Shown: one piece after another, positions 2,961 to 11,661 of the stretch
Layout of the letters: each line of letters starts with the position of its first letter
How positions within the stretch are numbered: the stretch's first letter is position 1
Assembly (NCBI GenBank): GCA_051382335.1
Contig: JBBCAX010000356.1
Coordinates: forward strand, 1 to 11,661
Direction: 5' to 3'
DNA from: Deltaproteobacteria bacterium TL4
GTDB taxonomy: Bacteria > SAR324 > NAC60-12
Length of the DNA stretch: 11,661 nucleotides
The notes under the pieces: model-generated
Told to the model about the DNA's origin: nothing
Database searches by the model: none
The model's input: only the letters and a program-made list of their open reading frames with translations
Made by a program: the position numbers and the translations under genes

Positions 2961-3020
2961 ATCCTTAGAGGGCCTCACAAGGACCATAATTAATCAATGA
3001 CAACTCAACGTGGAGACTCT

Positions 3021-4730
3021 ATGAGTAAAACCGTAACAACTGACGTTGCCCAAAGTGACGCTTATCCTGATTACATCGATGCGATCAATCCTGCAACCGG
3101 TGAACATTTAGGCACCGTTCCTTTCACTCCTCTTCATGAAATCCCCACTATCTTTGAAAACGCGAGAAAAGCGCAGGTTGGGTGGTATGACATGAGTTTT
3201 GAAAAACGCAGAACCTATATCTTTCGAATCCGAGATTATCTGATTGAAAATGCGGATTCAATAGCAACTGCAATTTCACAGAGTAACGGAAAAACACGTT
3301 CTGACGCTTTAAATACAGAAGTTTTGCCCTCCATTATGGCTTGTGACTGGTATGCCAAGAAAGCAAAAAAATTCTTAAAAAGAAATCGAATCTCCTCTTC
3401 AAGTATCTTATTCGCAAACAAGCGAAGTTATGTTTTGCGTATGCCTTTGGGGGTGGTTGGCGTCATTTCTCCCTGGAACTATCCCTTTTCCATTCCATTC
3501 GGAGAAATAATAATGGGGTTGATGGCAGGAAATGCGGTTTTATATAAAACCTCTGAAGAGACGCCCCTGGTTGGTGTTGAGATTGAAAAAGCGATCAAAG
3601 CAGGATGCTTGCCGAAAGGCTTATGTACCTTTATCATGGGATATGGGCCTCAAATCTCAGACGCTTTTTTCCAAAATAAAATTGATAAGATTTTTTTCAC
3701 AGGAAGTGTCAGGGTGGGGCAAATTTTAATGAAACGTGCCGCAGAAGAGGTGATGCCTTTATCCTTAGAACTTGGAGGCAATGATGCGATGATTGTTTTG
3801 GAAGACGCTAATTTAGAAAGAGCCGCAAACGGGGCTGTCTGGGGCGGATTCCAAAATAGTGGACAAACGTGTGCTGGAATTGAAAGAGTTTACGTACAGG
3901 AAAGTGTCGCGGAGGATTTTATTGAAAGGGTTGTAGAAAAAACAATGGCCTTGCGCCAAGGCGTTGATCAGGGAAACTTTGATATTGATGTGGGCTCCAT
4001 GACGACGGCCCGTCAACTTCAAGTGGTAAAAAACCATATTGAGGATGCCTTAAAAAAAGGGGCCAAAATCGCAGCACAGGTGAAATTACAACCGTCCGCC
4101 TCACCTAAATCGTTTTATCCCGCAACCGTCCTGGTCAATGTGAATCATGAGATGGATGTTATGAAAGATGAAACTTTTGGGCCGGTCATCGGAATCATGA
4201 CTTTCAAAACACATGAGGAAGCGATCACTCTGGCAAATGATTCTGATTTGGGATTAAGTTCAAGTATTTGGTCTCAAAATACAAGTGTCGCCAGAAAAAT
4301 GGCGGAACGACTGCAAACAGGCATGACTACCATTAATGATCATATTTTTACTCATGGTGCCTCAGAATTACCATGGACTGGATGGAAAAAAAGCGGTTTG
4401 GGGGTCACTCACGCCCATCTTGGTTTGGAAGAAATGACCAAAGTGAAGTTGGTCAATTATGACATAACTCCAGGATTAAATACGAACTTATGGTGGTTTC
4501 CTGTAAATAAACTTTCTTATGAGGCCATCTTGGAAACACCCAAGTTGATTTTTGGAACCAAAATCTATGAACGCGCTGATATTTTGATAAAACGCATTCC
4601 GAAATTATTAAGAGATCCCCTCTTGAAAGATAAGGCCTTGTATATGCTGGGACGTGTACGGAAAAAAGGGAAAAAAGTGATGCAAAACCAGTTTTCTAAA
4701 GAAAAAGAAGAAGAGTCTTCACTGGACTAA
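3021..4730 (+). CDS. NAD(P)-dependent aldehyde dehydrogenase (DDALDH/succinic-semialdehyde-dehydrogenase-like subfamily)
   Basis: Motifs ISPWNYP, FTGS..VG, catalytic Glu in LELGGND, catalytic Cys in GQTCAG and ETFGP, plus a C-terminal WWFP extension. ATG 3021 has SD GGAG at 3012-3015 and is preferred over the ORF-track start at 2997. Confidence 0.93.
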   Translation: MSKTVTTDVAQSDAYPDYIDAINPATGEHLGTVPFTPLHEIPTIFENARKAQVGWYDMSFEKRRTYIFRIRDYLIENADSIATAISQSNGKTRSDALNTEVLPSIMACDWYAKKAKKFLKRNRISSSSILFANKRSYVLRMPLGVVGVISPWNYPFSIPFGEIIMGLMAGNAVLYKTSEETPLVGVEIEKAIKAGCLPKGLCTFIMGYGPQISDAFFQNKIDKIFFTGSVRVGQILMKRAAEEVMPLSLELGGNDAMIVLEDANLERAANGAVWGGFQNSGQTCAGIERVYVQESVAEDFIERVVEKTMALRQGVDQGNFDIDVGSMTTARQLQVVKNHIEDALKKGAKIAAQVKLQPSASPKSFYPATVLVNVNHEMDVMKDETFGPVIGIMTFKTHEEAITLANDSDLGLSSSIWSQNTSVARKMAERLQTGMTTINDHIFTHGASELPWTGWKKSGLGVTHAHLGLEEMTKVKLVNYDITPGLNTNLWWFPVNKLSYEAILETPKLIFGTKIYERADILIKRIPKLLRDPLLKDKALYMLGRVRKKGKKVMQNQFSKEKEEESSLD

Positions 4731-5357: not shown

Positions 5358-6731
5358 ATGACACTTAGAGTAATGAACCCCTATAATCAAGAACTCGTTT
5401 TTGAAACCCCTTATGATACGAATCAGCAAATTCAGAAAAAAGTGGACCAAGCTTGTCAAACATTTCAAAGTTGGCGTCACCAAAGCGTTGCTGAACGGAA
5501 AAAAGAAGTAGAAAAATGCTTGGCGTATTTCCGAACACATCGTAATGAAATCGCCCAGGATTTGACTCAGCAAATGGGAAAACCCATTACAGAAGCCCAT
5601 AATGAAATCAAGGGATTTTTTGAACGTACGGAATGGATGCTCGCCAATGCGGAAGAGGTGCTGGCTCCTGATGAATTGTCACCCAAGGAGGGATTTCATC
5701 GACGGATTGAGCATGATCCCTTAGGTGTGGTCCTGGATATCGCTGCTTGGAACTATCCCCTCTTGATTGCTGTGAACGTGGTCGTTCCCGCATTGTTGGC
5801 AGGAAACACGGTATTGATTAAGCATAGTGCCAAAACCCCTTTATGTGGAAAGCATTTTGAAAACGCTTTCGCGGAATCCTCATTTCCAGGGTTGGTCACA
5901 AATCTCTATTTAACTCATGAACAAACCACCCAGTTGATCCAGATGCCTAAAATTGCGCATGTCGTCTTTACAGGCTCTGTCCCCGGAGGTCGTAAGGTCT
6001 ATCAGGATGCGGCTCAACGCTTCATTGATGTTGGCTTGGAACTGGGAGGTAAAGACCCGGCCTATGTCGCTCAAGATGCGGATTTGGCGTTTACGGTTCC
6101 GAACGTGATTGAAGGGGCCTGTTATAATGCGGGGCAATCTTGTTGCGCGATAGAAAGAGTGTATGTGCATCATTCGGTTTACGCTGAATTTATGGAGAGA
6201 GCTCAGGAGGCGATCAAGTACTATCAGTGTGGTAATCCTTTAGACTCTTCAACTACGCTGGGCCCTCTTGCCAGTAAATCCGCCCTCAGTTTTTTAGCAC
6301 ATCAAGTCCAGGACGCTCTTGACAAGGGGGCGACTTTGCTCACAGGCGGCCGTCCCCTTGCGGATACGAAGGCCAACTTTTTTCCCGCGACCTTATTGGC
6401 TAATGTGCCCAATCATGCGGAAGTGATGCAGGAGGAAAGCTTTGGCCCCTTGGTTCCTGTGCTCAAAGTCCAGGATGATCAGGACGCCCTGCAAAAAATG
6501 AACGAGACCCAGTTTGGTCTAACCGCCTCCATTTGGACTCGCGATTTAGATCGAGCGAATTATTTTGCAAAATATCATGATGCGGGTACAATTTACCAAA
6601 ACCGCTGTGATTATTTGGATCCCGCCTTACCTTGGACTGGCGTCAAAGATAGCGGAAAAGGGTCCAGTCTTTCTCCCTATGGTTTCTATCATTTGACACG
6701 GTGTAAAAGTATCCATTTTCGTCAAATTTAG
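5358..6731 (+). CDS. NAD(P)-dependent aldehyde dehydrogenase (ELGGKDPAYV subfamily)
   Basis: Motifs AAWNYP, FTGSVPGG, LELGGKDPAYV, GQSCCAIERVYV and EESFGP. SD AAGGAG at 5349-5354. Confidence 0.94.
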   Translation: MTLRVMNPYNQELVFETPYDTNQQIQKKVDQACQTFQSWRHQSVAERKKEVEKCLAYFRTHRNEIAQDLTQQMGKPITEAHNEIKGFFERTEWMLANAEEVLAPDELSPKEGFHRRIEHDPLGVVLDIAAWNYPLLIAVNVVVPALLAGNTVLIKHSAKTPLCGKHFENAFAESSFPGLVTNLYLTHEQTTQLIQMPKIAHVVFTGSVPGGRKVYQDAAQRFIDVGLELGGKDPAYVAQDADLAFTVPNVIEGACYNAGQSCCAIERVYVHHSVYAEFMERAQEAIKYYQCGNPLDSSTTLGPLASKSALSFLAHQVQDALDKGATLLTGGRPLADTKANFFPATLLANVPNHAEVMQEESFGPLVPVLKVQDDQDALQKMNETQFGLTASIWTRDLDRANYFAKYHDAGTIYQNRCDYLDPALPWTGVKDSGKGSSLSPYGFYHLTRCKSIHFRQI

Positions 6732-8302: not shown

Positions 8303-8818
8303 ATGGGTACAGTAATCAGTTTCGCGGAGCGTCGCCAAGAACGAGATGTAAAAAAAAAAGAGGAAACCCTTCGTGGTTATATCACTTGGTTGCATTGTCC
8401 GACATGCAAAACCCTTGAGTATACCGAATTATATATGGCAGGGGGTCGTATCCATAAATGTGGAACTATGGTTGAGGAAAAAGGCGTTGAAATTGATGTA
8501 AGGGCAGAATATACCATTTGTCGAAGAAATCTGGATACTTTAAGCAGTTTTTTGGAAAAGAGTGACAAGTTGAAAAAGAAAAATAGCGTTAAAATTGTCA
8601 ATAAATTATTTGGTTCTGCCATACAAATCATCCGCCAAATGGAAGTTTCCGAAAAAGAATATATGAAACGCTTAGAGTTGATTGCGTCCACTTCAATCGA
8701 AACCTATCCCGATCAGTGGACCCCTCAGGATCACAATCTTGAAGTTAAAAAAATTGAGCCTTTTGGCGTTCTTTTAACCCCCGCAAGGCAATCCGATCTG
8801 TATTTTCCAAAACGATAA
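8303..8818 (+). CDS. Hypothetical protein with a putative zinc ribbon (CxxC...HxC)
   Basis: 171-aa ORF with SD AAGGA at 8295-8299. Contains HCPTC...IHKCG followed by a helical region. Confidence 0.75.
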   Translation: MGTVISFAERRQERDVKKKEETLRGYITWLHCPTCKTLEYTELYMAGGRIHKCGTMVEEKGVEIDVRAEYTICRRNLDTLSSFLEKSDKLKKKNSVKIVNKLFGSAIQIIRQMEVSEKEYMKRLELIASTSIETYPDQWTPQDHNLEVKKIEPFGVLLTPARQSDLYFPKR

Positions 8819-9626: not shown

Positions 9627-10370
9627 TTATAAGACTTTTCTTTTTTCTCCGTGACGATCGACCCACATTGGAGTTTCCAAGGGGTCTTCCTGCTGCACTT
9701 TGGACTCAGGGATAAACAAGGTGATTCCCGCGCCTTTGAGTTGCTCTATTTGAGGTTGTACCTCATAAAATTGCTTATAGCTGGGAATCACGCAGAGAAC
9801 CCGGATCAAGGTTCCTTCTTCGTAATGAAAGCGGTAAAGGTGTTCGTTCCTGGCCTGGTATAAAAAATAAAATAAAAGATCCCGACTGATTTGCTCAAAG
9901 CTTCGCCAATAGTGGATGAAGTAAAGTCGTTTTTCACCATCCGGGAATTGAATGGTTGCCAGGCCTTCAGGCTTTAATTGTTGGGATTCATGTTCAAAAC
10001 GGGTAATCAGAGGCCGTCTTCCAAAATTTCCACCTCCAATCCATTGGATCAAGTTTAGATTACGATAATGGCTGAGTTCTTTTTCTATTCCAAACCGTAA
10101 TTGATTCACCGTACAAATGCGTTGTGCCAGTTGTTCCGTAAAGCTGTATTGAGGGTGATGTTGAATTCCCAGTGTCTGGAACCCTAGTGCCGTGAGGGAG
10201 AAACATTCGAAGCCTTGGAATACATGTCGATGGATGAGTTTCGCCCTTTCCGCCTGTGTGCGCATGTCCTTAATGGCTTTGAGGGAATCTTGAGGAAAGA
10301 GACGTTTGAGTAAACTGTAGTTCACTAGAGTATAATGATTTAAAACTTGTAAAAAATGCTTGCGTTCCAT
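9627..10370 (-). CDS. Replication-relaxation (Replic_Relax/MOB-C-like) family protein, apparently catalytically degenerate
   Basis: 247 aa. The N-terminal winged-helix-like part ends in 'FSLTALG'. It is followed by 'ICTVNQLR', 'LIQW', 'LKPEG', 'RLYFIHYWRS', 'RVLCVIPS' and C-terminal 'DPLETPMW', the order and spacing I recognise for this family. No clear SD. Assignment is by pattern recognition only. Confidence 0.65.
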   Translation of the reverse strand: MERKHFLQVLNHYTLVNYSLLKRLFPQDSLKAIKDMRTQAERAKLIHRHVFQGFECFSLTALGFQTLGIQHHPQYSFTEQLAQRICTVNQLRFGIEKELSHYRNLNLIQWIGGGNFGRRPLITRFEHESQQLKPEGLATIQFPDGEKRLYFIHYWRSFEQISRDLLFYFLYQARNEHLYRFHYEEGTLIRVLCVIPSYKQFYEVQPQIEQLKGAGITLFIPESKVQQEDPLETPMWVDRHGEKRKVL

Positions 10371-10840
10371 GGCAAATTATGATTAATACTCATACAAGGT
10401 CTATTTTCATAGGCTTGTGTTCTCTATTGTTTTTCCTGTGCGAATAGTCTCATCGCATCAATGTACATCAGATCGACGTTATTTCAGAACACTTGCACCA
10501 AGGGTACTGTAAGAACGTTTTTGTGCATATCATTCAGACCTAATCCAGTTTACCTGAATTTGGTTATTACGGAGGATGACCAAAGTTCCACTCGTGGACC
10601 ATTCATTCTCAATAAAGGCCGTGTTGTTCCAACACGCTCATTGGTTGAGACATTCTTTAATGGTCGTTGAGCTCGTTCCATTGGGAAACTCCAGATTAAT
10701 AAAGATTGCGGACTGCGGGGAGGCAGCCGGGATCTTCATTAGTCTGGAGTTTCCCGGAGTCTTGGGAAAAATAGTTATTGTAAGTTATTCCTTTAAAAAT
10801 GCAAATCGGTTTTTAAAGAGTTGTCGTCGTTTAGGTCAGT

Positions 10841-10880
10841 GGGAGTAAGCAATCCCTAAATTGCTTACTCCTTTGTTCTT
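10841..10880 (+). terminator. Intrinsic-terminator-like hairpin
   Basis: Perfect 12-bp stem GGAGTAAGCAAT (10842-10853) / ATTGCTTACTCC (10860-10871) with a 6-nt loop, followed by TTTGTTCTT. Confidence 0.55.
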
Positions 10881-11254
10881 GCTCAGATCGCCAACCCGCG
10901 TCCCTTCTTCTCTTCGGCATTTCCCCCAAAAACCTTTAGTAATATTTTACGCTGTGGCAAGAATTCCATGTTACTTCCTGTTTCAGACTACTTTTCGGTC
11001 TTTCTAAAGGGGCTCAAAAAATGGATTTTAAAGAGGAGTTCACTCTAAATGAATCAAAATAGTCACTCGATCGATTCAATCCCGATAATTCGGTGGTGTC
11101 CCAGATTGACTTTCAATAATTGTATGATGATATCAATCGTTAAATAAAATAACGAAACATAGCATGTCGGCTATTGAAAACACCTTATTGAGGAACAATA
11201 AGGTCTTGCAGTCCTGCTTCAGACATATAGCCCAATACCCGTGAATGAAATCAT

Positions 11255-11319
11255 GTTCGTAGTTCCGCCTTTAGGCGGTAAGCCTTGCAGAAAAGCCGCC
11301 TAAAGGCGGAACTACGAAC
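11255..11319. repeat. REP doublet (REPIN) of the GTAG type
   Basis: Perfect 24-bp inverted repeat GTTCGTAGTTCCGCCTTTAGGCGG (11255-11278) / CCGCCTAAAGGCGGAACTACGAAC (11296-11319). Each arm has GTAG followed by the internal palindrome CCGCC-N4-GGCGG. Confidence 0.85.
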
Positions 11320-11342
11320 TTTTCTCAATGACTTCAGAAAAA

Positions 11343-11511
11343 GGCTACCCACTTAAGCCGGGACAAATTCTAGTTCCCAAGCTCCAGCTTGGGAACTCAA
11401 CAACACGGAAGCTCTGCTTCCTTGAACTGAAGCTGGAGCTTCGGTTGGAGCATTCCCAAGCTGGAGCTTGGGAACGAGTTGGAATAGCTGTCCCGCCTTA
11501 AGTGTGTAGCC
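11343..11511. mobile_element. MITE-like element with 23-bp terminal inverted repeats
   Basis: GGCTACCCACTTAAGCCGGGACA (11343-11365) versus TGTCCCGCCTTAAGTGTGTAGCC (11489-11511): 21 of 23 positions complementary. No coding capacity and no obvious target-site duplication. Confidence 0.7.
11370..11478. repeat. Four-palindrome REP-like cluster (GTTCCCAAGCTCCAGCTTGGGAAC family) inside the MITE-like element
   Basis: Outer inverted copies CTAGTTCCCAAGCTCCAGCTTGGGAAC (11370-11396) and ATTCCCAAGCTGGAGCTTGGGAACGAG (11452-11478). Inner palindromes GGAAGC-TCT-GCTTCC (11407-11421) and CTGAAGCT-GG-AGCTTCGG (11427-11444). Confidence 0.85.
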
Positions 11512-11661
11512 GGAATCAATGATTGAATCCATTTTTAAACTACTGATAATACTCGACTTTGAACAATTTGCTCAATATTACTCCTGAATAAAATCAGAGA
11601 CTTATAAAGTCGTATTAGAATTAATGATAGGTTTGGCCTGAAAAACGGGAAATAATAACCT

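Follow-up and report, generated by a model that had tools for sequence, protein, structure and literature searches.

Organization of the locus

The window analysed here is the whole of contig C356 (11,661 nt), one of 445 contigs in a 6.6-Mb SAR324 genome (G000); a close relative of one of its proteins carries a SAR324 label from its source. Its right-hand part carries an intact 247-aa ORF on the minus strand (protein P0001), convergent with recR, and the 1291 nt upstream of this gene (10371–11661) contain only ORFs of 69 and 90 aa. The features from P0001 to the contig end are as follows.

9627–10370, minus strand: 247-aa protein P0001, winged helix (residues 1–71) plus Replic_Relax-type restriction-nuclease-like domain without the acidic catalytic motif
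10376–10403, minus strand: weak promoter-like site, 9/12 matches, ending 6 nt before the ATG
10392–10420, unstranded: first helix, a weak hairpin overlapping the promoter-like site, 21 nt from the ATG
10428–10773, plus strand: predicted multi-branch domain closed by a 10-bp helix, single-copy
10683–10755, unstranded: hairpin B, single copy, 29-nt arms, 86% complementary, z −7.8/−10.1
10841–10880, plus strand: hairpin C, 13-bp stem then T-rich run, intrinsic-terminator-like, z −4.6/−5.3
11058–11091, minus strand: 34-nt scrap, 94% identical to C291:72-105
11092–11232, plus strand: left part (nt 1–142) of MITE-D, which is 225 bp long and bounded by terminal inverted repeats
11227–11342, unstranded: dispersed repeat E with a perfect 24-bp REP-like hairpin (11255–11319), 43 loci
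11343–11511, unstranded: repeat F, 23-nt terminal inverted repeats flanking a REP-like doublet (11370–11478), parts at 44 loci
11507–11552, plus strand: resumption of MITE-D, nt 138–183
11552–11661, plus strand: left part of MITE-G, a 194-bp element at 63 loci, best copies 96–100% identical

Elsewhere in the window, a DDE transposase fragment (HTH_Tnp_4) occupies the opposite contig end (2–346). Two ORFs that look by eye aldehyde dehydrogenase-like (2997–4730 and 5358–6731) lie on either side of a 160-aa TerB-like gene, and the ORF at 8303–8818, immediately upstream of recR, encodes 171 aa with two CxxC/CxxH-like motifs and matches no family.

The sequence-only reading of this DNA had described an intact 247-aa ORF beside recR and about 1.3 kb of adjoining DNA without credible ORFs, and both observations stand. 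Two candidate small protein genes (10461–10670 and 10576–10848) were rejected on negative codon scores (−0.19 and −0.04; four real genes gave +0.06 to +0.18, and the test is weak, one of three shadow frames reaching +0.06). The further claim that the region forms one very large structured element fails: the proximal 687 nt (10371–11057) are single-copy in the assembly, and from 11092 onward the DNA consists of nested multi-copy repeats. A 1291-nt ORF-free gap is itself not rare in this genome, because a crude ORF mask yields 50 such stretches of at least that length and multi-copy repeats make up 42% of bases across 1123 intergenic stretches (crude mask, ORFs of at least 110 aa). By crude mask, a repeat is present in 241 of the 274 intergenic stretches of at least 700 nt.

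A Replic_Relax-like protein without the canonical catalytic acids

P0001 received no Pfam, PHROGs or PADLOC name, and a PDB sequence search returned nothing under E 0.39. In its AlphaFold2 model (pLDDT 95), residues 1–71 resemble MarR/HxlR winged helices (Z up to 9.7, rmsd 2.1–2.4, 69–70 residues aligned); the matches listed in this wide fold search concern the N-terminal domain only, the C-terminal domain being barely probed by it. Foldseek matched XisH and restriction nucleases weakly (2okf, probability 0.99, E 4e-3), and the top Atlas match scored 0.94, with 23% of that cluster's members carrying PF13814. The family profile retrieved a true PF13814 gene in G008, aligning to its product over 239 columns at moderate strength (probability 76, E 2.3e-5), and the PF13814 cut-off was reached by none of ten family members. 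By these profile and fold comparisons, the homology of the family to Replic_Relax/MOB-C relaxases, which the sequence-only reading had recognized, extends over its whole length, and we infer that the family arose from them. In the SAR324-family genome G008, five genes score above the Pfam cut-off for Replic_Relax (L032, L035, L037, L038, L039).

The family is rare; protein searches gathered 11 cluster representatives and further relatives. Full members were found in 3/88 genomes of the phylum (G000, G009 and G075) and in one gammaproteobacterial assembly (G088); among 61 genomes sampled from the G088 phylum and 401 from its order, a full match occurred in G088 only, together with three short N-terminal matches (E 2e-5 to 6e-4). 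Plasmid protein searches and viral scans were blank for the family protein, and the sole locus to emerge from 320 metagenome-scan candidates (L008) was discarded as spurious (28% identity, no matching ORF). The family alignment holds 22 near-full-length rows, with P0009–P0014 left out. Both intact relaxases and P0011 sit on long branches in the tree, and for that reason we claim neither a donor nor an order of events.

The P-D and E-x-D acids, invariant in all seven Replic_Relax proteins, are replaced throughout this alignment. No row of the 22 has a complete acidic motif (PD...ExD). The first catalytic D column contains no D and nine residue types instead; the catalytic E column contains 20 H, 1 I and 1 D; and the last D column is F, W or C in every row. 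The canonical catalytic site is thus absent family-wide, in agreement with the earlier description of P0001 as catalytically dead. Other positions are strongly kept, among them the invariant basic and aromatic residues K22, R23, R180, R190 and Y168. An active site could in principle have been rebuilt from N89 (22 of 22 rows), H90 (19), H153 (20), D/E164 (21) and Y168 (22), in which case P0001 would not be dead; their near-invariance, and the requirement of TraX for a tyrosine as given in the sections of PMC6736028 consulted, speak for such a site. Free variation at the first catalytic D position argues against it, and we regard a rebuilt site as quite unlikely.

Folding of the single-copy stretch

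Compared with shuffled sequences, 10385–10960 folds with a z of −5.1 on the plus strand and −6.2 on the minus strand. Its folding excess ranks first among 106 single-copy non-coding stretches of at least 600 nt in the genome, a ranking based on the first 600 nt, plus strand, with 10 shuffles each, our window having been chosen for being structured. The signal derives mostly from hairpins B and C, of which B is the strongest hairpin in the same 106 stretches; the stretch without both retains z −2.5/−2.3, and the 5′ part alone (10385–10675) z −1.7/−1.9. In the predicted multi-branch fold, most helices have a pairing probability above 0.9. The proximal DNA is thus more structured than chance. The first helix, placed by the sequence-only reading about 20 nt from the ORF, is indeed predicted at 10392 but is weak, lying within windows of z above −1.3. 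Folding is about equal on both strands, which is how palindromic DNA behaves, and the stretch has no conspicuous repeated 8-mers. The promoter evidence is weak because six promoter-like sites were found where 3.7 ± 2.0 were expected; the site at 10376–10403 might, on this weak footing, give a leaderless or nearly leaderless mRNA.

Several candidate identities were rejected. A CsrB/RsmZ-type sponge RNA was dismissed on finding 11 GGA in 500 nt against a genome average of 9.1, csrA being present in the genome. Divergent tmRNA, SRP, 6S or RNase P RNA was set aside, a normal copy of each lying elsewhere in the genome, as was a target of the genome's own CRISPR array, 10371–11050 having no second match in the assembly.

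Searches for relatives of the stretch were negative within their scope. Rfam gave no match in the single-copy DNA, with sub-threshold miRNA-like hairpin scores on the repeats only; BLAST recovered the stretch in 0/60 relatives; and DNA searches of plasmids and phages, plus viral scans, returned nothing for it. Three single-sequence covariance models (10425–10590, 10590–10762 and 10800–10940) matched 0/87 other genomes of the phylum, including G009 and G075, a sample without a congeneric genome that measures rarity rather than absence and that an RNA restricted to close kin would escape. At about 450 nt, the orphan structure 10428–10880 is a modest candidate for RNA discovery.

Nested repeats and the continuation on C158

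The distal 11092–11661 is MITE-type DNA, with terminal inverted repeats, many copies and no encoded transposase. It is preceded by the 34-nt scrap, which by eye resembles an IS3-type transposase frame. MITE-D, whose intact copies are on C174 and C34, resumes after repeats E and F and has no matching flanks or target duplication at this locus. MITE-G is the youngest of the nested MITEs, with a 7-bp target duplication here and short duplications at other copies. Of its 63 loci, 37 lie near contig ends, and C356 itself ends inside it; MITE-G has spread in a recent burst and interrupts many contigs. Apart from its four-layer nesting, the stack of MITEs is nothing unusual in this genome.

Among 67 MITE-G right ends in the assembly, only one, on C158 reversed, leads into the 7-bp duplication and 225-bp MITE tail that a join requires, so that the right part of MITE-G, the duplication and the MITE-D end are all found there. 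From this sole matching right end we infer that C356 joins C158, which would place a truncated helicase beyond the window. This helicase gene lacks its 5′ end and has DrmD as its best PADLOC match; after it come a type IIG restriction-modification gene and frames of DruE-like and UvrD-like helicases. The defence-like cluster (L047:5940-19677, G000:C158), in which the DrmD-like helicase is MITE-truncated and the DruE-like helicase lies in several frames, appears to be decaying. PF13814 had no match across the genome and PF10412 a single marginal one; no coupling protein or transfer region was found at the locus or its C158 continuation.

Homologous loci

Genomic contexts are known for 4 of the 22 aligned family members, this locus included, so that three homologue loci constitute the linkage test. 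The G075 homologue is separated by a 42-nt gap from a co-directional ORF. The G009 homologue (58% identical) has 397 nt upstream, after a co-directional gene; upstream positions 7–271 match that genome's own repeats (49 matches there, self included). This G009 gap (L005:8498-8894) is likewise filled by host-genome repeats, which are unrelated to ours. In G088 (L009:4603-6750, L026, L027; C105), the homologue stands head-to-head with an intact-motif PF13814 gene across a 648-nt spacer (z −0.8/−3.0, with a 13-mer present twice). The surrounding island encodes a TrwB-like protein and two tyrosine integrases on one side and a complete Zorya I set on the other. The relaxase facing it has only a distant relationship to the family (probability 1, E 0.049).

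Our upstream DNA showed no likeness at any of the three loci by BLAST, nhmmer or RNA models. Two short likenesses were attributed to chance, one of 15 nt to the G009 upstream DNA (E 0.58, inside a coding end) and one of 11–13 nt linking MITE-G to repeats of the G088 spacer (E 2). No transfer genes were found in G009 and PF13814 had no match there, whereas G075 has one PF13814 match on a different contig. The sequence-only reading had paired a dead relaxase with a large adjacent RNA and suggested looking upstream of homologues for the same element; with ordinary or unrelated DNA at 3/3 loci, none carrying it, an outcome which that reading had named as refuting, the pairing is not supported.

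Interpretation

We consider it reasonably probable that P0001 is a relaxase derivative without the catalytic acids, likely a DNA-binding regulator, and that the composite DNA adjoining it is likely unlinked to it. Judged from its fold, P0001 would bind DNA through the winged helix and no longer cut it. In mobile islands such as that of G088, a family member would bind spacer repeats lying between its own gene and the intact relaxase gene, and so serve as an accessory protein or repressor, an arrangement that is represented by one locus. In G000 and G009, searches for a Replic_Relax gene found none, and the protein would work there as a lone regulator of chromosomal sites, its own promoter possibly among them. 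The stretch 10428–10880 would be old palindromic debris or, with odds of roughly one in three, a small RNA confined to this lineage that terminates at hairpin C, and the MITEs would have accumulated in a gene-free gap as they have genome-wide. Palindromic debris explains poorly the first rank among 106 stretches and the z that persists without hairpins B and C. The preferred reading also draws on 4 of 22 members for context and on RNA models made from one sequence.

The locus might instead be the relic of an integrated MOB-C element, its hairpins being oriT-like DNA sites bound by P0001, the facing relaxase having been deleted by MITEs and the C158 defence genes being cargo. The G088 homologue lends this some weight, since 648 nt separate it from the intact relaxase gene opposite, a distance similar to our 687-nt single-copy spacer, and defence cargo lies alongside. 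MITE-D without matching flanks and the truncation of the next gene fit an adjacent deletion, the DrmD-like helicase, type IIG restriction-modification gene and DruE-like helicases of C158 would be suitable cargo, and TraX binds repeats distant from its nick site, as stated in the parts of PMC12857230 consulted. Yet the stretch bears no likeness to the G088 spacer and lacks prominent repeated 8-mers, and a relaxase pseudogene upstream of P0001 was rejected, tblastn leaving no trace of a remnant. The closest homologues (58–60% identity) are chromosomal singletons, one of them in G009 with its lack of transfer genes, and we hold a relic to be unlikely. The earlier alternative of a mobile-element edge nonetheless holds in part, since the distal 570 nt consist of nested MITEs and lead on to a defence cluster.

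Least probable, and in our view very improbable, is a lineage-limited ribonucleoprotein in which dead P0001, after losing its nuclease and leaving its mobile element, binds an adjacent, previously undescribed multi-domain RNA of about 450 nt (about 10428–10880) transcribed away from its gene. The divergent layout, predicted multi-branch fold, terminator-like end, top folding rank and invariant K22, R23, R180, R190 and Y168 would all suit such a pair. Against it stand the three homologue loci without the element, the 87 phylum genomes without a match to the RNA models and the 60 relatives blank in BLAST, the near-equal folding of both strands expected of palindromic DNA, and MITE DNA making up 44% of the claimed element. 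A protein–RNA system is thus unlikely because the hairpin region is in part nested MITEs and in part a one-off fold that relatives lack.

Comparison with known systems

Like bacterial MITEs and REP/REPIN elements, the distal DNA is non-coding, occurs in many intergenic copies and has terminal inverted repeats and a target duplication. TldR-type proteins are dead nucleases that work with guide RNAs; a dead nuclease gene beside a candidate RNA is a shared trait, but the candidate RNA accompanies the gene at 0/3 homologue loci. The large ornate RNAs GOLLD, ROOL and OLE (PMC12286853) are comparable to 10428–10880 in size (about 450–500 nt) and in a predicted multi-branch fold, whereas our stretch has no Rfam match, does not co-occur with the family protein and, lacking any homologue in the searches, shows no covariation.

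The closest relatives of P0001 are the MOB-C/Replic_Relax proteins (PF13814), such as TraX of pAD1 and MobC of CloDF13, which it matches in size, winged helix and homologous nuclease-like domain. According to the sections of PMC6736028 and PMC12857230 consulted, MOB-C relaxases combine an N-terminal winged HTH with a restriction-nuclease-like fold and a metal-binding DEE motif, and TraX itself has this make-up (winged HTH plus a restriction-nuclease-like domain with the DEE motif). In contrast, the P0001 family has lost the acidic motif and falls below the Pfam model, and no relaxase partner or clear coupling protein was found in G000. The parts of PMC3424549 seen name inactive PD-(D/E)XK homologues such as RecC and predict Replic_Relax to be a transcriptional regulator because of its HTH fusion; these families share the regulator idea with ours, while a separate dead Replic_Relax subfamily is not described in those parts. 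Nor did we find one described in the literature searched, mostly titles and abstracts of open-access papers.

Relaxosome auxiliary proteins (NikA, PcfF, TraY and MobC-type) are, in the sections of PMC12857230 consulted, non-catalytic proteins that bind DNA and whose genes lie close to the relaxase gene and origin, a position that fits the G088 layout. They are mostly ribbon-helix-helix proteins, whereas P0001 is a full-length dead relaxase relative whose auxiliary role is putative. The lasting result is a conserved subfamily of such dead MOB-C relatives, known from 22 aligned sequences; one member was found opposite an intact relaxase on a mobile island, and elsewhere the subfamily was found as lone chromosomal genes. 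Should the G088 layout prove general, MOB-C elements would employ a dead version of their own kind of enzyme as an accessory factor or repressor, with a bearing on how non-covalent relaxases are recruited.
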